From Candidatus Electronema aureum (GTDB lineage: Bacteria > Desulfobacterota > Desulfobulbia > Desulfobulbales > Desulfobulbaceae), in contig NQJD01000033.1 in assembly GCA_004284765.1 (NCBI GenBank), positions 1-27,489 of the forward strand: a DNA stretch of 27,489 nucleotides. Reading direction: 5' to 3'. The notes beneath the pieces were generated by a model that saw nothing but the letters and a program-made list of their open reading frames with translations, was not told the origin of the DNA and did no database searches. Positions 1-27,139 of the stretch are shown here, piece after piece (position 1 is the stretch's first letter; every line of letters begins with the position of its first letter). Position numbers and translations under genes: made by a program.

Positions 1-157
1 CTTTCATAAGAACGGCGTTTGGCTGGCGGGCATTCGCCCTCTGAAAACTGAGACCAAGTCGGAAGTCAACTTTTTCAATATTATATTGTTTTTAATGGTA
101 AATTCAATGTGTTTTTTAGGGAGCCGTCCGCTTTGCCACTCATGGTTCACCATTACC
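1..157 (-). mobile_element. Truncated end of an IS-like repeat, cut by the window edge; perfect inverted copy of 27333-27489
   Basis: The reverse complement of 1-157 matches 27333-27489 at 157/157 positions (compared by eye). Identity stops sharply at 157/158 and 27332/27333. Read outward, the element begins GGTAATGGTGAACCATGAGTGGC (a GGTAATG start recalls IS1-type ends) and carries an outward promoter. No transposase is visible in the window, so the family is unassigned. Confidence 0.5.
80..107 (-). promoter_or_regulatory. Outward-facing sigma70-like promoter inside the left repeat copy
   Basis: Minus strand: TTGAAT (107-102), 16-nt spacer, TATAAT (85-80). The mirror image lies at 27383-27410. 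Confidence 0.4.
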
Positions 158-421
158 TAAACGTTTGCCAGCGGACACGTCCCAGATACAGATGGTCTTG
201 TCATTAGAACCGGAAGCAAGCAAACGACCGTCAGGAGAAAAGGCAACACTATTTACACCATCCGTATGTCCTTCCAGCGTCTGTAAGCGTTTACCAGTCC
301 GTACTTCCCAAATGCCGATGGTCTTATCACTGGAGCCAGAGGCAACAATACGCCCGTCCGGGGGAAATGCAACCCCGTTCACTCTTTCAGAATGATGACC
401 GCTGAACGCGGGCAACTGCAC
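140..421 (-). pseudogene. WD40-repeat fragment: the out-of-frame, 3'-truncated continuation of the STAND NTPase gene
   Basis: Two WD40 units are present ([33 protein letters not shown]; [32 protein letters not shown]). The frame is open upstream to about 527 ([44 protein letters not shown]). It runs into the 157-bp repeat and stops 5 codons inside it (GNGEP*). Confidence 0.75.
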
Positions 422-489: not shown

Positions 490-2151
490 TCAGTGCATGA
501 AGGGGGAATACAGATGGGCGTACAGCTTACTGCCTTTACTCTCCGCAGCCTCGGCTTTGGCATTCAGGGCCATGCCTGTTTGCAAGGACTCTGCCTGATT
601 AAGCTGGGACACTGCTTGTTTCAACTGGGTCAATGCCTCCTTCGCCCTGTAGGTAGCTCGGAGAGCCAACAGGCTTGACAGCACTGTTGCCACTGCTACT
701 GTCACCGCAACCCAGAACCAAATGCGGACTCTCCGGTTTGCCGCCGCCCTCTCATCAAGATACGCCTGCCGCCCTTTGCTGTGCTCCAGAAACTGCGTAA
801 CCACTGGCTCCAGCAGGGCTATATCACCCACCTCAGCCAATACCTTCGCCAGCTTCTCACCCGTATAAAGCACGCTCCGGTCTGTCCTGTTGCTGTCCCG
901 CCATATCTGCGCATCCCGCAGCAGCGGCCCCTGCTTGTCCATCCACGCCCGATTAGCCTGCAAGATCGGCCCGACAAAGCGGTCATGCACCAGCTCATAC
1001 CAGGCAGCACCGGAGCGGCTTTCGGCGCGGAGCAGGAAGCGGTCTTCCAGCAGGCGCACTGCCCGGTTGTCCATGCCCGCCGTGCTCTCATCCCCCTGAA
1101 AGACCGTGCCCCTCGTGCCTGCGGGCGTGATCAGCTGATGGTCGAACCAATGCCGCAGCTCCAGTTCCGAGACCTTGACCGTGCGCAGCGCATCAGCAAG
1201 CGCAAGCTCGTAGAAATCAGCCAGCGCATGGTCTATGTCGCCCGCGCCCGCAACCTGCTCTGCCGTGATCTCAGCCGCCTGCGCGGTTTTCTCCCAGAGC
1301 TGATAGCAGACCACCTGCAACTGCACCGGCTCAATGTGCTCGCCCGGCCTGGCCTCCTTGCTTCTGCTGGTGCGGATCAGGCTGAGATTGTCCACCAGCA
1401 GCTCTGCCGCGCCGGGCGCAAAGGGCCGTCCCTGCTGCGTCTGCGTAGCTGGTTTGCTGATTGCCGCGAGCGCAGCCTTGCGCCCCATCCGTTCCATGTA
1501 GAATCGCGCCCGCATCCGGTCGGCCATGAGCGGCGCGTATGGCTCCAGCGCAGCCACGTAATCCTCGCGCAGAGCCAGCAGCACGGAGAGCTTGGGGTCA
1601 TCCTGCATGGCTTGGTTGAGCTGGCGGAAGAACGCGGCCCTGTCCTGCCATCTGCCCGGATGGGCGGTGAGGATTTCCTCGAACTGGTCGACAATTAACA
1701 CGCAGACCGGCGCGTCGCCGCTGTCAGACTGGCTCTGCGCCTCGTCCGCAAGCGGCTCATAGCGGTATGTCCGCCCGTCCGCGCTGACCAAGTTGCGCAG
1801 GAAGCTGCTCAGGCGCAGATGCGCCAGCTCCGCCGGAGCCGTGCTGCCCTGATCGAGCTGGAGCATCAGGCTGAAGGCAAAGATGTTGTCAACCGCCTCC
1901 ACGCCTGCGGGCAGGCCGCCGCTGACCCTGCCGACCGGCAGCGCAGCCCGGTTATTCTCCTCCAGCCCCGGAACAAGGCAGGTGTTGATCAAGGAGGTCT
2001 TGCCCGCGCCGGACTGAGCGTAGAAGAGCACCAGCCGCTCCGAGATGACCAGCGACAGCAGGTCGCGGGCCTCGCGTTCCCTGCCGAAGAAGAAGGCGCG
2101 CTCCTTGCGGGTGAAGGAGCGCGGGCCGATGTAGGGGTTGCTTGCGTTCAT
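490..2151 (-). CDS. STAND-class P-loop NTPase (nSTAND/NACHT-like) with a C-terminal TM helix and coiled coil; N-terminal part of a disrupted NTPase-WD40 gene
   Basis: N-terminal [17 protein letters not shown] is followed by Walker [11 protein letters not shown] and Walker [10 protein letters not shown]. This pattern is typical of NTPases fused to WD40 arrays. A TM segment ([21 protein letters not shown]) and a coiled coil follow. The stop at 490-492 lies just after a G5/C5 homopolymer. Confidence 0.8.
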
Positions 2152-2156
2152 TGCCT

Positions 2157-2294
2157 TGAATGAATGTATCTCGATAACGCTTGTGACTCAGACTCATAAG
2201 TACTTGTGACTTTAACTCACAAGTACTATCGAGTTCATCTCATAACCGCTTGTGAGAAAAAGTCACAAGCGCTGTCGAGTTTTCGACCCATGAG
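2157..2294. promoter_or_regulatory. Array of dyad-symmetric operator-like sites (CTTGTGA-N7-TCACAAG) phased at 23 bp, upstream of the STAND NTPase gene
   Basis: Sites lie at 2180-2200 (cttgtga ctcagac tcataag), 2203-2223 (perfect cttgtga ctttaac tcacaag; arms extend to 11 bp) and 2249-2269 (perfect cttgtga gaaaaag tcacaag). Site starts are 23 and 46 bp apart. The intervening 23-bp units are degenerate copies (ctatcgag.., ctgtcgag..). A larger inverted repeat, 2168-2187 versus 2262-2281, matches at 17/20. Confidence 0.55.
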
Positions 2295-2332
2295 AATGTC
2301 TGCCCGGAAGATCAGCGGCTCCGCCTGTTCTG

Positions 2333-2824
2333 TCAAACCAGCACCTGGCAGCCGCATTCCAGCTTGATCAGCACGGGCGAGACGTGGCGGACGGCGCGGT
2401 CTCTGCGGACATGGAGCACCAGCAAGGTGAGCGGGTCAAACACGATCACATCCTTGACTCCCTGCGACAGATAAAAAGGTGGCCCGATTTCCAAGTCCTT
2501 GGCCTCAAAGCCTTTGCTGACCACTTCAATGACGGCTTCAGGAATGATGGTCAGGGCTGCATCCTGCTCTTCCTCGCTTGGCTCATGGCAGAGAATGGAG
2601 ATGTCAGGTCGCTTCAAGCCGCCGGGGAACTGAATATAGACATCCACAGCATGAACGCAGGCGCATTCAGTGCCGTCTGTCTGTTTTATGATGCTTTGAA
2701 CTATGCGTTCAATATGCTTCTGATGCCGGTAAACCGGCTGCGCCTCCCAAAGTGGAAGGCCATTGACAATCTCCAGGCGGATGCCCAGTTCGCTTGCCTG
2801 AAGGATGGATGACTGGATATTCAT
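2333..2824 (-). CDS. Uma2 (DUF820) family endonuclease
   Basis: PD-(D/E)xK-type Uma2 pattern: RPDISILC ... PEAVIEVVSKGFEAKD ... YLSQGVKDVIVFDP. 163 aa. Confidence 0.7.
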   Translation of the reverse strand: MNIQSSILQASELGIRLEIVNGLPLWEAQPVYRHQKHIERIVQSIIKQTDGTECACVHAVDVYIQFPGGLKRPDISILCHEPSEEEQDAALTIIPEAVIEVVSKGFEAKDLEIGPPFYLSQGVKDVIVFDPLTLLVLHVRRDRAVRHVSPVLIKLECGCQVLV

Positions 2825-2901
2825 AGATTACTGTGGTCAGATGTGCAAACAGTTAGTGAAGGAATGAAGGGATTCGCCCTGCTTGATGCTTCATGCCCTC
2901 C

Positions 2902-3897
2902 TCAGCCCCGCAGCCCTGCCTGAAGCTGCCGCAGGTATTCGCCGAAATCGCCCCAGAACACTTTGAACGAAACCTCGTCCATGTAGCGGTTGAGATACGC
3001 CTGCTCCTCAGGCGAAGGGTCGAGCTGGAGGGCGCAGACGCTCTGCAAGCAGTACGAGCGCGTCTTGATCAGGCCGTAGAGCAGGGTGCGGAAATCCCAG
3101 TCCGCCAGCTCGTAGCCCAGCAGCATCAGGGAGGAATCATTGAGGGCCTGCCGCAGACGGTTGGGGATGAGATGGCGGCCTTCTGCAAGGTTGACGAGGA
3201 AGGAAAGGTAGTCGTCCTCGCTGAGAACCAGCGACTCAGGGCAGCTGTCTATGCCGTGCAGATGAAAGACCAGCGGTTCGAGCGCGGTCGGCTGCCAGTC
3301 ATCAGCAAAGGGGCCTGGCGCGGCAATGCGCGGGTGCCAGCAGCAGACCCCGGCGCGCGGCTGCTTGCCTGCGGCCTGCAAAGCCTGCTCCAAAAAGCAG
3401 TGGAACGAGGTGGTCAGGTAAATGGGCAGATCAAAGCTGGCAAGGAGGAGCAGGGGGTCGCTACTTGGCTCGGCAAAACGTGGATAGCCCAAATTGGCCG
3501 CCATCACAGAGAAATGGTGTTCGTCGAACTGCGCGTTTTCCTCTTCCAGTAGGCCGCCCAGAGCACCGCTGCTGTCAGCGGCTTCGGCCAACTCCAGCAA
3601 CCTGCTTTTGGCAAAGTCGAGATACTCCCGCTTAACCCAGTCCTCTGCCCCGGCCAGCTCGCGCATGACCGTGTTGTACTGCGCCGCCGCCGCGATATTG
3701 GCAGCGGAAACCGCAGGCACGGCGTGATGTTCCGTGTACGCCCGCGTCAGCTCCGCATGGCCGCCGAGGAGCAGGTCGTTGTGCACGCGGTTGCTGACTA
3801 TCGGCAAGACCTTGCCGCTGCGCAATTGCTCCAGCATGGCCTGCCGCCAGTCACCGGGGGCGGGCTGCTGCTTTCTGCCTATGGCGATGCGGGGCAT
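2902..3897 (-). CDS. SIR2_2-type (SIR2-like) domain protein, divergent
   Basis: LPIYLTTSFHCFLEQALQAAG ... LVFHLHGIDSCPESLVLSEDDYLSFL ... SLMLLGYELADWDFRTLL matches the TTNYD / HLHG / LvLTedDY / FlGYSlsD layout of SIR2_2 domains. The start is placed at ATG 3897 (MPRIAIG), preceded by GAGGAGGACGCTT. The longer ORF to 3990 overlaps the upstream gene. Confidence 0.7.
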   Translation of the reverse strand: MPRIAIGRKQQPAPGDWRQAMLEQLRSGKVLPIVSNRVHNDLLLGGHAELTRAYTEHHAVPAVSAANIAAAAQYNTVMRELAGAEDWVKREYLDFAKSRLLELAEAADSSGALGGLLEEENAQFDEHHFSVMAANLGYPRFAEPSSDPLLLLASFDLPIYLTTSFHCFLEQALQAAGKQPRAGVCCWHPRIAAPGPFADDWQPTALEPLVFHLHGIDSCPESLVLSEDDYLSFLVNLAEGRHLIPNRLRQALNDSSLMLLGYELADWDFRTLLYGLIKTRSYCLQSVCALQLDPSPEEQAYLNRYMDEVSFKVFWGDFGEYLRQLQAGLRG

Positions 3898-3922
3898 AAG
3901 CGTCCTCCTCAGCTCAATGTGC

Positions 3923-4399
3923 TCAGGCGATGCGCCCGGAACTATACACCTCGGCCAGCGGCAGCTCGCACTGAATGGAGGCAAGGGCAAGCACGTCCTC
4001 CATGCGATGAAAGGCGGCGTAAACCCAGGTGCTGTCGGCCTGCCGGGTTAACCGTTCGATCTTGCAAGCGTATTGACATACCAAGATGTATTCAGCCAGC
4101 GAAGGAATGAGCTGATAATGGGAGAACTTGTCGCCCCGGTCGTATGCTTCCGTGCCGTCGGAAAGTATCTCCACGATGATGACCGGATTGAGCAGGACAT
4201 CCTTCTTGTCATCCGCATACTCTTCTTTCCGGCACACCACAACCACATCAGGATGCGTGTATTTCTCTGCCGACTTGATCTTCACTTTCATGTCGCTGGC
4301 AAAGACTTCGCCGTCAAAGTATTCGTGTCTGACAGAGGAGACTCGCTCTGCGGCAAGATACTCTTCAGGACTGAGCCGGTGCTGTTCACATGCCTGCAT
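3923..4399 (-). CDS. Uma2 (DUF820) family endonuclease, short variant
   Basis: EEYLAAE..RHEYFDGEVFA ... HPDVVVVC ... NPVIIVEILSDGTEAYDRGDKFSHYQLIPSLAEYILV. AGGAG lies 8 nt upstream of the ATG. The segment usually found between the GE-motif and the PD-motif looks about 30 aa shorter than in typical family members (from memory). Confidence 0.7.
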   Translation of the reverse strand: MQACEQHRLSPEEYLAAERVSSVRHEYFDGEVFASDMKVKIKSAEKYTHPDVVVVCRKEEYADDKKDVLLNPVIIVEILSDGTEAYDRGDKFSHYQLIPSLAEYILVCQYACKIERLTRQADSTWVYAAFHRMEDVLALASIQCELPLAEVYSSGRIA

Positions 4400-4413
4400 G
4401 AGACAATCTCCTG

Positions 4414-5259
4414 TTATGGTTCCATGATCACCCGGAAACCCAAGTGGCCGAGCTTGCTGCTCGCGGCTGAGAAGCCCCGCATGGCGCAGCGGAGGTCGTG
4501 CGGCATGTTTTTGTAACAGCCGCCGCGATGAATGCGGAAGACCGACGCGGAAGCAGGCGAGAGGTCATCCCGCCCGTCCTGCTGAAAGGGATAGGCAAAC
4601 TCAGTCTGGGCCGGGCTGCTGCCCCAGATGGTGGATGTCCATTCCCGCACATTGCCGAGCAGATCAAGGCAGCCGTAAGAACTTGCCCCTGCGGGAAAGG
4701 CTGTGACTGGCGTGGTTGAGGCGGAAGCGCAGTTGCAGCAGTTGTCCTGCCAGTCATTGCCCCAAGGATAGAAACGGCCATCGGCGGAACGGGCTGCTTT
4801 CTCCCATTCTGCCTCGCTCGGCAGACGGTAGATACGTCCGCTCTCCGCACTGAGCCAAGCGCAGTATGCCGCCGCGTCATGCCAGCTCACGCCGATGACG
4901 GGATGCTCCTCGCAGCCTGCGGGCGGACGGCGCAGCAGCCAGCCTTTCGGGGCCTCGTGCCCGGCCATGCGGACAAAGGCTTCGTACTGCCGGTTGGTGA
5001 CAGGTGTCTTTCCGATAAGAAAGCTGGGCAAAATGACCTCATGCAGCGGGGTCTCCTGCGCGGGGATGCCTGCCGCTGAAGCACTTCCCATCATGAACGG
5101 GCCGGAGGACACTTCAACCGGCTCAGGTTCATAGGGCAGCCGGGGCTTGGCCTTGCTCTTGCTTTCAGAATGCAGCGTGAGATTGCGGATGATAATATCA
5201 CCGCTGCCTGCGACAATATTCCCGCTGCCGGAAATGTCTTGGCGGACAGTGTCGGGCAT
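4414..5259 (-). CDS. FGE-sulfatase (SUMF1/formylglycine-generating-enzyme-like) domain protein with an N-terminal G/N/V-rich motif
   Basis: GPFMMGS..HEVILPSFLIGKTPVTNRQYEAFV..HPVIGVSWHDAAAYCAWLS..YRLPSEAEWEKAAR..YPWGN..GNVREWT..HRGGCY is the classical FGE-sulfatase fold signature. The N-terminal 31 aa (DTVRQDISGSGNIVAGSGDIIIRNLTLHS) mirror the C-terminus of the upstream protein. The start ATG overlaps the upstream stop (TGATG, 5257-5261). Confidence 0.85.
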   Translation of the reverse strand: MPDTVRQDISGSGNIVAGSGDIIIRNLTLHSESKSKAKPRLPYEPEPVEVSSGPFMMGSASAAGIPAQETPLHEVILPSFLIGKTPVTNRQYEAFVRMAGHEAPKGWLLRRPPAGCEEHPVIGVSWHDAAAYCAWLSAESGRIYRLPSEAEWEKAARSADGRFYPWGNDWQDNCCNCASASTTPVTAFPAGASSYGCLDLLGNVREWTSTIWGSSPAQTEFAYPFQQDGRDDLSPASASVFRIHRGGCYKNMPHDLRCAMRGFSAASSKLGHLGFRVIMEP

Positions 5260-5669
5260 CAGATGGTGATGCTGATATTGCCGGCAGTCACATCGCCGGT
5301 GCCAGCAACAACATTCCCATGACCGACAACGTGCTGCTCAACAGTGGTCTGCCGGATTGCCTCCTCGCCCCCCGGCTGCTTTTTGAGCGCAGCAAGAAGC
5401 TGCTGCGCTAGCTGATGCAGCTCTTGGTCTTTATCTACTCCGGCATCCTTGAGAGCCTGCTCCAGCATCTGCCGTCTCGGTGCAGCCTCTGGCTTCTGAC
5501 TGACCAAATCAACCGCATCTGTCACATCGGCATTGCCGCCGTAGCGGCTCTGGATGAGCTGCTTCAATCCGTTGTAAGCATCTTTGACAGCTGCTGCGGC
5601 AACGTTCTTTAGCGATTCTGCCGCGCCAAGCGCAACAGCAGCAACGATGGTGGTGGTGACTGGCTCCAT
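5259..5669 (-). CDS. Small all-helical protein (Bell/HeLo-like N-terminal region) with a C-terminal G/N/V-rich motif
   Basis: The start is placed at ATG 5669 (MEPVTTT), 6 nt after AAGGAG. The ORF-track start at 5744 is a TTG lying inside a TTGACA box. The protein has a hydrophobic first helix (MEPVTTTIVAAVALGAAESLKNVAAAAVKDAYNGLKQLI), then charged helices, then the tail TTVEQHVVGHGNVVAGTGDVTAGNISITI*. Confidence 0.7.
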   Translation of the reverse strand: MEPVTTTIVAAVALGAAESLKNVAAAAVKDAYNGLKQLIQSRYGGNADVTDAVDLVSQKPEAAPRRQMLEQALKDAGVDKDQELHQLAQQLLAALKKQPGGEEAIRQTTVEQHVVGHGNVVAGTGDVTAGNISITI

Positions 5670-5715
5670 GATATTCTCCTTGGCTTTTGTTGAATGTGGA
5701 TATTCGCCTTGCATC

Positions 5716-8490: not shown

Positions 8491-9075
8491 ATGGATAATA
8501 TATTTACGCTTACAGAACATGCATTTGGTTTACTCGTCAGGTTATATGGAGAAAAGAAGAAAGATGGAAGTATATTGTTGTCATGCGAAGATGAAAAAAG
8601 AAATAGAAAAATTGTTTCTGAGGATCAAGCGTTTGAAAGAATCAACGCCGCAGTCCGTATGAATCTTGAACAACTTGAACGGAATATTGATCAAGCAAGA
8701 AAAGAATCAAATCAATTTTTTAAACTTACGCTGGTATTTTCCAGTCTTGGTTTTTTCGTTGTTCTTACTGCGGTCGCGCTGCTGCTTGGCGGACAGGTGG
8801 TTGCTGGAGTCGTTTCTGCTGTTGCAAGTACAATACCTGAAGTCACCGCCGCTTTGTTTTTCAAGAAAGACAGAGAGCTGAGAGACTCTATTGAGAGATA
8901 TCATCAACACGTTATGGAGTCGCAACGCATTTTGACCATGATTGACGTGGCGGAAACTGTTCAGAATCACGAAGAAAGAGATTCGATCAAACGGCAGATT
9001 ATTTGCAAAGCTCTCGGTATTGATTCAACTGCAATTAACATCCAAAGCGAGTCTGCTTTTCCCATTGTAAATTGA
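8491..9075 (+). CDS. Hypothetical 2-TM membrane protein in an AT-rich segment
   Basis: Two adjacent TM helices (LTLVFSSLGFFVVLTAVALLL / VVAGVVSAVASTIPEVTAALFF) are flanked by charged helical regions. The architecture resembles the 2-TM module called TRADD-N-associated membrane domain, from memory only. A sampled line (8521) is about 35% GC. Confidence 0.45.
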   Translation: MDNIFTLTEHAFGLLVRLYGEKKKDGSILLSCEDEKRNRKIVSEDQAFERINAAVRMNLEQLERNIDQARKESNQFFKLTLVFSSLGFFVVLTAVALLLGGQVVAGVVSAVASTIPEVTAALFFKKDRELRDSIERYHQHVMESQRILTMIDVAETVQNHEERDSIKRQIICKALGIDSTAINIQSESAFPIVN

Positions 9076-13977: not shown

Positions 13978-14118
13978 TATAGCCAGAGCAACATAATTTG
14001 AACCGTCGTATCTGTCATTTCGAGCGGAGCGAGAAATCTCATGCCAAGGACGAAGAGGAGATTCCTCGCTCCGCTCGGAATGACATTCAAGTTCACTTTA
14101 TGCTGCTTCAGCTATAAC
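13978..14118 (+). mobile_element. 141-bp MITE/REP-like palindromic element, copy A
   Basis: 139/141 identical to 26999-27139 in the same orientation. It holds an internal 27-bp stem (gtcatttcgagcggagcgagaaatctc / gagattcctcgctccgctcggaatgac, with one wobble and one mismatch). Imperfect terminal inverted repeats are TAGCCAGAGCAAC / GCTGCTTCAGCTA. Both copies are bracketed by TA. Confidence 0.7.
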
Positions 14119-14184: not shown

Positions 14185-14322
14185 AATCCTAAGCTAATGG
14201 GAATGTACATCCTAAGTGCTTGAGAGTCTCAATCCCAAGCTAATGGGATTTGCAATCCTAAAGGTTTGGGATTTACATTCCTAAGCTAATGGGATTTGAA
14301 ATCCTAAGCGTTTGGGATTTTG
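14185..14322. repeat. Tandem array of six 23-bp dyad-symmetric units (three 46-bp super-units)
   Basis: Units start at 14185, 14208, 14231, 14254, 14277 and 14300. The consensus is AATCCTAAGCTAATGGGATTTnn, and the best unit is aatccca-agctaa-tgggatt (7-N6-7). Odd units carry AAGCTAAT in the centre and even units carry AAGnGyTT. The array starts 27 bp beyond the stop of the TPR gene. Confidence 0.85.
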
Positions 14323-26998: not shown

Positions 26999-27139
26999 TA
27001 TAGCCAGAGCAACGTAATTTGAACCGTCGTATCTGTCATTTCGAGCGGAGCGAGAAATCTCACGCCAAGGACGAAGAGGAGATTCCTCGCTCCGCTCGGA
27101 ATGACATTCAAGTTCACTTTATGCTGCTTCAGCTATAAC
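26999..27139 (+). mobile_element. 141-bp MITE/REP-like palindromic element, copy B
   Basis: 139/141 identical to 13978-14118 in the same orientation (the differences are A/G at the 16th base and T/C at the 65th base of the element). Confidence 0.7.

Follow-up and report, generated by a model that had tools for sequence, protein, structure and literature searches.

Amyloid signalling has been established for fungal and bacterial pairs of a NOD-like receptor (NLR) and an executioner, and once for a TPR-GreA/B-C-PIN receptor. The cable bacterium Candidatus Electronema aureum, which grows as multicellular filaments, has a locus that raises the question of whether a protein of the FGE-sulfatase (FGS) fold can take the receptor side of such a pair. 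The locus lies on the minus strand of a 27,489-nt stretch of DNA (contig NQJD01000033.1), which was analyzed over its whole length and is called the window below. A gene for a small Bell-like (HetE-N) effector of 136 amino acids (5259..5669) is followed by a gene for an FGS protein of 281 amino acids (4414..5259), and the two products share a 29-residue motif, C-terminal in the first and N-terminal in the second. An earlier note on this DNA, made from the letters alone, had called the layout amyloid-signalling-like. This description is supported by the family of the effector, the NLR pairings and the tails of bacterial amyloid signalling sequence (BASS) type 3 among its relatives, the predicted disorder of the motif, and the co-variation of its two copies. 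On balance, and with somewhat better than an even chance, we regard the effector and the FGS protein as a prion-like (amyloid-type) signalling pair.

The shared motif and its conservation in gene pairs

The last 29 residues of the effector (TTVEQHVVGHGNVVAGTGDVTAGNISITI, 5262..5348) aligned without gaps to residues 3–31 of the FGS protein (DTVRQDISGSGNIVAGSGDIIIRNLTLHS, 5167..5253), with 12/29 identities. BLASTP of one protein against the other gave 12/26 identities and 19/26 positives (E 2e-6). The local score of 71 compares with 28 ± 4 after shuffling of the whole partner (reached in 0/2,000 shuffles), and with 20.8 ± 4.6 when only the 29-residue segment was shuffled and its composition kept (0/20,000). 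A six-frame scan of the window detected exactly two copies of the motif, both on the minus strand, at 5348 and 5253, and no third copy; the SIR2, nSTAND1 and Uma2 proteins encoded nearby do not carry it, and one internal nSTAND1 segment that scored z 3.8 against the motif was judged to be a chance match. The coding segments of the two copies share only 56% nucleotide identity (15/29 at third positions), and therefore they are not a fresh duplication. Both motifs have a weak inner period of seven residues, G-[ND]-[VI]-x-x-G-x. The motif is made up of 14% I, 13% G, 11% V and 10% N, with T and S also frequent, and has little L (4.8%), K (2.7%) or P (0.4%); this fits the bias of BASS motifs, in which G, N, Q, V and I are enriched and K, P and L are depleted. 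Searches with the 42-residue FGS N-terminus against an index of 5.8 billion proteins gave no candidate, and those with the 39-residue effector tail against 1.84 billion representatives gave no match at E up to 0.001, each query being too short for such a search.

The structures predicted by AlphaFold2 (AF2) place both segments outside the globular parts of the proteins. The predicted local distance difference test (pLDDT) score was below 50 for effector residues 99–136 and for FGS residues 1–34, beside confidently modeled domains, so neither motif belongs to a globular domain, and in the models both are disordered appendages. The earlier note had held that a segment modeled as an ordinary part of a globular domain would speak against its proposal, and the models gave the opposite picture.

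The two genes are tightly coupled. The effector ORF (open reading frame) ends with TGA at 5261-5259 and the FGS gene starts with ATG at 5259-5257, read as catcTGATGccc, so that they overlap by one nucleotide. The effector start codon at 5669 is preceded by the Shine-Dalgarno sequence AAGGAG (5681-5676), and no such sequence was found at the FGS start; initiation there would thus rely on the stop/start overlap. Fusion of the two ORFs by frameshifting was also considered and was rejected, since no slippery site lies ahead of TGATG. These observations on the overlap and on the gap-free alignment with its 12 identities agree fully with those of the earlier note. The effector is 100% identical to the database entry P0001, a hypothetical protein, and the FGS protein is identical to P0031, both from Ca. 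Electronema aureum.

The arrangement was compared across 37 loci with effector relatives and nine more places found by exact look-up. Among the effector relatives the helical domain is conserved and the tails differ. Wherever a short G/N/V-rich stretch forms the tail, a copy of it opens the product of the following gene. The partners that copy the tail are an NB-ARC-TPR protein (L002), NB-ARC proteins (L003, L008, L010), a NACHT-like protein (L001), an nSTAND1-WD40 protein (L021), other P-loop/TPR proteins (L006, L009) and an FGS protein (L005). This arrangement is the canonical Bell/BASS-NLR layout of Dyrka et al. The pairing with FGS, with the motif on both sides, was found in the window and in eight other metagenomic variants (L005, L041-L044, L047-L049), and the 1-nt stop/start overlap is present in all of these sequence variants (9/9).

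The two copies change together. In one variant the tail reads GHGNVVAG and the FGS motif GSGNIV[AS]G; in a second, the tail reads GKVN[VI]ISG and the FGS motif GKVNVVSG; and L042 has an aromatic F in both the tail and the FGS motif. The earlier note had proposed co-variation within homologous pairs as a check, and we compared the summed within-pair score with those of random re-pairings in 100,000 permutations. The observed score was reached in 0/100,000 permutations for 17 pairs (nine with FGS and eight of the NLR/NTPase type) and in 114/100,000 for the nine FGS pairs alone. Because independent drift would not give such an excess of within-pair over between-pair similarity, the tail and the N-terminus of its partner co-evolve, although the independent events are few. 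In marine Electrothrix (L001, L002, L006), the same motif family occurs with NACHT and NB-ARC receptors, which points to swapping of partners around a constant module of effector plus motif.

Some relatives show further arrangements. A second HetE-N class (L007, L011-L036, e.g., L029:578-1036, L030:630-2765, L020:123-740) has a tail of about 60 residues, apparently with two pseudo-repeats (IGVDLxxIxGAALxI... / GVKVxxAxxxGDIxIxxV), and the partner N-terminus may carry one copy, recalling R1/R2 of HET-s versus R0 of NWD2. In shuffle tests of this tail against the partner, only L020 and L027 were significant (z 5.2), and L029, L051 and L026 were marginal (z 2.2–3.0). In L017 (1150-4240), several motif-bearing partners stand alongside one effector: the products of two genes ahead of a single Bell-like gene both start with GSGAxAxxxGxAAGAGGVAxxGxV, and a DUF4062+FGS protein of 566 amino acids is among them. 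On one contig of Electrothrix marina, two copies or fragments of a Bell-like gene (L003:1788-1997 and 3648-4082) stand upstream of a gene for an NB-ARC receptor whose motif is G-rich.

The effector, the FGS protein and the four-gene cassette

The small protein matched Pfam HetE-N weakly over its full length (E 0.003), and a precomputed HetE-N annotation lists P0001, the identical protein, together with the next-best 23 homologues (P0002-P0024). The tails of distant actinobacterial homologues (P0027-P0029, including a Kribbella protein) match published BASS3 with z 10–14, which ties the effector family to the Bell proteins proper. The small protein belongs to the HetE-N/Bell effector family. 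AF2 predicted five helices (4–19, 26–43, 47–58, 63–76 and 82–96) with pLDDT 70–86 from a 29-sequence alignment, and the first is hydrophobic and Gly/Ala-rich (MEPVTTTIVAAVALGAAESL), in agreement with the earlier description of a helical protein with a hydrophobic first helix. This five-helix domain (residues 1–98, 5376..5669) is the predicted membrane-targeting executioner module, a role that we infer by analogy with Bab and HET-S. PADLOC and NCBIfam gave nothing for the effector. None of the viral contigs encodes a relative, and a phage-borne origin was rejected for this reason.

In the second protein, the FGE-sulfatase domain, whose fold is C-type-lectin-like, occupies residues 45–278 (4426..5127; Pfam E 4e-52) and was modeled with pLDDT >90. 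PADLOC and NCBIfam returned only generic FGE-fold families, and Pfam detected no effector-associated domain (EAD). The protein has no NTPase, so the earlier account of it as a 281-residue FGE-sulfatase protein without an NTPase module stands. The catalytic cysteines of human FGE are Cys336 and Cys341. In a HMMER alignment to the human FGE chain 2aft, the FGS residue aligned with Cys336 is Ile, and that aligned with Cys341 is Cys, where the consensus of a 30-member family alignment has Ser. The catalytic Cys pair of true FGE is thus not kept. Its loss fits the view that the FGS domains of conflict systems are lectin-like sensors or binders of invaders and not enzymes (Kaur et al. 2021, PMC8195603).

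In this FGS clade the N-terminus is an adaptor slot, filled here by an amyloid-type motif, because close paralogues carry EAD7, DUF4062 or CHAT at the same place. Among the best 120 FGS homologues listed, 47 have a helical N-terminal module of about 90–110 residues (EAD7 where tested), and in another 23 the N-terminal region is larger (DUF4062, CHAT and others). Short extensions are present in about 19, of which 11 are strongly rich in G/N/Q/V/I/T/S/D. The closest FGS paralogues are EAD7-FGS proteins. A diversity-generating retroelement (DGR) was also sought. Neither a repeat of the FGS gene nor a reverse transcriptase was found in the 27 kb of the window, and none in L038; without template repeat and reverse transcriptase, this hypothesis was rejected. 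Three observations concern the N-termini of other FGS proteins. P0035, P0036 and P0041 have annotated starts reading MHIHL... or MAEGKQ..., and the true start is probably upstream at a non-ATG codon. In L020 (572-740), the in-frame sequence upstream of the FGS start contains IGVKIENA, a copy of the neighbor's tail. The N-terminal arms of P0105, P0126, P0127, P0138, P0143 and P0144 have a recurrent element, GGDxIGRDK(I/V), that resembles the GRDQ core of BASS1.

The pair opens a conserved cassette of four genes, of which only the first two carry the motif. From tblastn synteny, the order is Bell-like effector, motif-FGS, SIR2_2 and an nSTAND1-repeat NLR, and it is present in the window, where two Uma2 genes are inserted, and in L012, L013, L022, L020, L047 and L051. 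The third conserved gene of the window encodes a 331-residue SIR2_2 protein without a terminal motif (2902..3897, assigned by Pfam and synteny), and the fourth an nSTAND1 STAND NTPase of 553 amino acids (490..2151; Pfam E 1e-34 from residue 6), four genes past FGS as the earlier note had observed for a STAND NTPase. No motif was found in SIR2 or nSTAND1 in any cassette examined. The nSTAND1 protein starts at its NTPase domain, with no N-terminal extension, and in the window it ends past a hydrophobic segment resembling a transmembrane (TM) helix and a coiled coil. In soil contigs (L012, L013, L022), whose proteins are 45–57% identical to those of the window and which have no Uma2 gene, nSTAND1 extends into C-terminal WD40 repeats (about 730–810 residues in L013; at least 730 in L012, where it runs off the contig). 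The NLR of the host is broken: a 93-residue WD40 fragment in another frame (140..421), a remnant of the NLR repeat sensor, is followed by further WD40 repeats (476 amino acids) beyond a DDE transposase (L038:13519-19386). A shorter order is seen in L050 (FGS, SIR2) and in L052-54 (FGS, SIR2, nSTAND1-pentapeptide), and FGS there still has a G/N/I-rich N-terminal arm. The earlier note had proposed a new sensor-to-executioner coupling in an FGE-domain pair. The conserved and co-varying FGS partner agrees with that proposal, but the pair is not a free-standing two-gene system without NTPase; it is rather the front half of a cassette ending in nSTAND1.

The inserted genes and the surroundings also have recognizable features. 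A Uma2-family putative endonuclease gene (3923..4399) begins 14 nt past FGS, and a Uma2 gene occupies this position in every cable-bacterial version (L043, L047, L051; 57–74% identity) and in these versions only. The second Uma2-family gene (2333..2824) is inserted between SIR2 and nSTAND1. The Uma2 genes of the cassette match the PADLOC candidate family PDC-S03. L051 also has a PhdYeFM/PIN toxin-antitoxin pair, inserted ahead of SIR2. The cassette (490-5700) has a GC content of 60–65%, compared with 45–53% in the flanks of this island and 39–54% in the flanking genes, and this contrast suggests horizontal acquisition. It is flanked by rpsU on one side and by an insertion sequence (IS), a BrnT toxin gene and a RecD2-like helicase gene on the other (L038). 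No Rfam family or tRNA was found in the window. Three kilobases from the cassette, among housekeeping genes and on the plus strand, 8491-9075 encodes a 194-residue protein with a CyanoTRADDas_TM domain, a two-TM module associated with TRADD-N conflict systems; the local GC content is only 39%. A 141-nt repeat occurs at 13978-14118 and 26999-27139, 13 kb apart with 99% identity, and three tandem 46-nt units (AATCCTAAGCTAATGGGA...) lie beside its first copy at 14185-14322; neither the repeat nor the units matched Rfam.

A proposed mechanism and competing explanations

In the mechanism that we propose, the effector would be a Bell/HetE-N-type executioner that is held inactive as long as its 29-residue G/N/V/I-rich tail is unfolded. 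The FGS protein would present the same motif on a disordered N-terminal arm, ahead of a non-catalytic, lectin-like FGE-fold that may serve as the ligand-binding module of the receptor side. The FGS molecules would be clustered, either through binding to a multivalent ligand of the invader or by being captured on the oligomerizing nSTAND1-repeat NLR of the cassette, and their N-terminal motifs could then stack as a cross-beta nucleus. This nucleus would template the tail of the executioner, and the freed helical domain would attack the membrane, leading to abortive infection or altruistic death within the filament. SIR2 would be a second, motif-less effector, presumably under the direct control of nSTAND1. 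The direction from FGS to effector is taken from the position of the motif, since an N-terminal motif is the receptor position in all described BASS pairs and their fungal counterparts (FASS). A bolder version appears doubtful to us, although it deserves consideration: lectin-fold FGS would be a new class of amyloid-nucleating immune receptor, free of NTPase and working by clustering on a multivalent invader ligand, or else part of a "split NLR", as its detachable sensor/adaptor subunit. There, nSTAND1-WD40 would oligomerize, FGS would be the amyloid arm, and two effectors, a pore-forming Bell-like protein and a SIR2 NADase, would be fired in parallel.

Several observations weigh against the amyloid-type signalling pair. 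FGS has no built-in oligomerizer, and the "effector" slot is where Kaur et al. put EAD-FGS (PMC8195603), which makes it less than certain that FGS is the receptor. The HetE-N match of the effector, at 18 bits, is below the Pfam cut-off of 25, and Foldseek gave no match of its helical domain in the PDB (E >1), so that no similarity to HeLo, MLKL or Bab was detected. Against representative BASS1-10 examples typed from Table S2, the motif matched only weakly, with z at most 3.9; among these representative sequences the best were a BASS1-NLR (z 3.9), BASS2 all_24 (z 3.2) and BASS4 (z 2.7). The earlier expectation that the motif would be paired in orthologous neighborhoods held in the eight other FGS variants, but not everywhere. 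In the soil cassettes L011/L013/L018/L022, the similarity between tail and FGS N-terminus was not significant (z ~1), and a by-eye impression of matching tails there failed this shuffle test; in L050 and L052-54, no Bell-like gene lies directly upstream of the motif-bearing FGS gene. Finally, the NLR of the cassette is split by a frameshift and an IS, and the system may therefore be decaying.

The main rival is non-amyloid, constitutive docking, which we consider unlikely but the most serious of the alternatives. The shared motif would serve for ordinary homotypic docking, for example as a beta-zipper or a short beta-solenoid, in a soluble complex without templating, like that of a toxin with an inhibitory or targeting subunit, and a ligand on FGS would release or reposition the helical protein. 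Translational coupling implies co-expression at a fixed ratio, a regular beta-solenoid could accommodate the period G-[ND]-[VI]-x-x-G-x, the motif does not match the typed BASS1-10 examples, and FGS lacks an oligomerizing NTPase, all of which suit such a complex. On the other hand, this terminal layout recurs within the effector family, with NLRs as partners and with published BASS3 tails, whose prion and amyloid behavior has been shown by experiment, and AF2 gave neither segment a folded structure.

It is rather improbable that FGS is a second client, with both it and the effector being recruited or templated by a third motif-bearing protein, such as an NLR elsewhere in the genome or an ancestral, intact nSTAND1 NLR. 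Such an arrangement would follow the "EAD principle", in which one adaptor copy is on the NTPase and the others are on effectors. Kaur et al. list FGS among the effector-position domains and describe EAD-FGS proteins, and the closest FGS paralogues have just this architecture; an nSTAND1 NLR is within the cassette, and L017 has several motif-bearing genes around one Bell-like gene. However, this explanation is opposed by the lack of the motif in nSTAND1 and SIR2 of any cassette examined, by the start of nSTAND1 directly at the NTPase domain, by the count of only two motif copies in 27.5 kb, and by the N-terminal location of the FGS motif, which is that of a receptor.

We give very little credit to the idea that the FGE-fold protein is an enzyme modifying the small protein, with the shared segment as a substrate mimic or recognition peptide. 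The FGE-sulfatase fold does include real enzymes (FGE, EgtB, OvoA, PvdO and ToxD-like proteins), and some orthologous tails end in Cys; but conservation does not extend to the catalytic Cys pair of FGE, the DinB/His-triad domain seen in EgtB or OvoA is absent, the tail has no CxPxR-type FGE target, and the same tail family pairs with NLRs having no enzyme domain. Chance similarity of low-complexity G/V/N-rich termini, or recent local duplication across the gene junction, has practically no standing: both segments are compositionally biased, but the explanation is refuted by the composition-preserving shuffles, the nucleotide identity of just 56%, and the pairing that is conserved and co-varying in nine FGS-pair variants and eight NLR/NTPase-type pairs. 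A reading of the motif as a cargo tag for an encapsulin or bacterial microcompartment (BMC) was rejected, because the window has no shell gene and the consensus is unlike that of such tags.

If the FGE-fold does carry a receptor-side motif, then the motif would be a portable adaptor, interchangeable with death-like EADs, and could wire any sensor to a membrane executioner. The pair also offers an experimental handle on the role of FGS in bacterial conflict systems, with a two-gene read-out of fibril conversion and cell death. The conserved gene content suggests that the cassette of these multicellular cable bacteria is an NLR-type system with several effectors and subunits; in a filament, the kin of a cell that dies altruistically clearly benefit.

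Comparison with known systems

HET-S/NWD2 of Podospora anserina is similar in that an executioner with a C-terminal prion motif adjoins a receptor with the motif at its N-terminus, and there the receptor-side motif templates the executioner. It differs in being fungal and in having a HeLo domain, a NACHT-WD receptor and two pseudo-repeats on the effector; the tail of the class present in the window, class 1, has a single motif with an inner period of seven residues.

The STAND NTPase-FGS systems of Kaur et al. share more of the components. nSTAND1 was defined in fused [EAD/effector]-NTPase-FGS proteins (Kaur et al. 2020/2021, PMC7159879, PMC8195603), in which FGS is C-terminal and the adaptor or effector N-terminal, as with the motif at 3–31 and FGS at 45–278 here. 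These systems also include nSTAND1, SIR2 or HetE-N-type effectors, have the adaptor duplicated between two proteins, and are enriched in multicellular prokaryotes. However, an NTPase (NACHT, MNS, nSTAND1, KAP or AP-GTPase) is located between adaptor and FGS in the fused proteins, whereas there is none in the 281-residue protein, and FGS and nSTAND1 are encoded by separate genes at our locus. Their adaptor is a globular, death-like EAD, and ours is a 29-residue disordered motif, probably of amyloid type, which is on FGS and not on the NTPase. They are also frequently associated with DGRs, unlike this locus within its 27 kb.

The layout is closest to that of the Bell/BASS/NLR pairs (Dyrka et al. 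2020, doi 10.1101/2020.01.06.895854). In both, a small helical effector with a C-terminal motif adjoins a colinear, tightly spaced gene that has the same motif of about 25 residues at its N-terminus. The motif is rich in G/N/V/I and poor in K/P/L, and the host is multicellular (filamentous). In addition, homologues of this effector carry BASS3 tails or adjoin NB-ARC, NACHT and nSTAND1 receptors. The differences are that the partner is an FGE-fold FGS protein without a nucleotide-oligomerization (NOD) module instead of an NLR, that the motif is not recognizably one of BASS1-10 as judged from the typed examples only, and that the locus encodes its NLR separately, in a gene that lacks the motif and lies two conserved genes farther along. 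The survey by Dyrka et al. reported no BASS pair in Desulfobacterota (doi 10.1101/2020.01.06.895854), and neither FGE nor FGS is mentioned in the BASS papers. In a full-text search of a literature library, amyloid signalling and FGE-sulfatase did not occur together in any paper, in line with the earlier note, which knew of no described amyloid-type pair with an FGE-domain partner.

A non-NLR receptor is already known, however, and the earlier proposal of a new coupling is narrowed by it. Bab/Agp (BASS11) of E. coli ECOR25 was shown experimentally to be an amyloid-controlled anti-phage abortive infection (Abi) system with such a receptor (Ibarlosa et al. 2024, doi 10.1101/2024.11.07.622273), and it is the nearest precedent for the FGS pair, as the adjoining receptor is neither an NLR nor NTPase-bearing in either case. 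HetE-N is also listed among the effectors that occur fused to proteins of TGP architecture (TPR, GreA/B-C, PIN), which is also that of Agp (Kaur et al. 2021, PMC8195603). The receptor of Bab/Agp has the architecture TPR-GreA/B-C-PIN and senses via RNA polymerase, in contrast to the lectin-like FGS protein, and Bab/Agp is a two-gene prophage unit, whereas the pair described here, for which no viral relatives were found, belongs to a chromosomal cassette of four genes that includes SIR2 and nSTAND1. With the qualifications given above, these comparisons support an extension of BASS/Bell-type signalling to an FGS partner on the receptor side, within a four-gene cassette.

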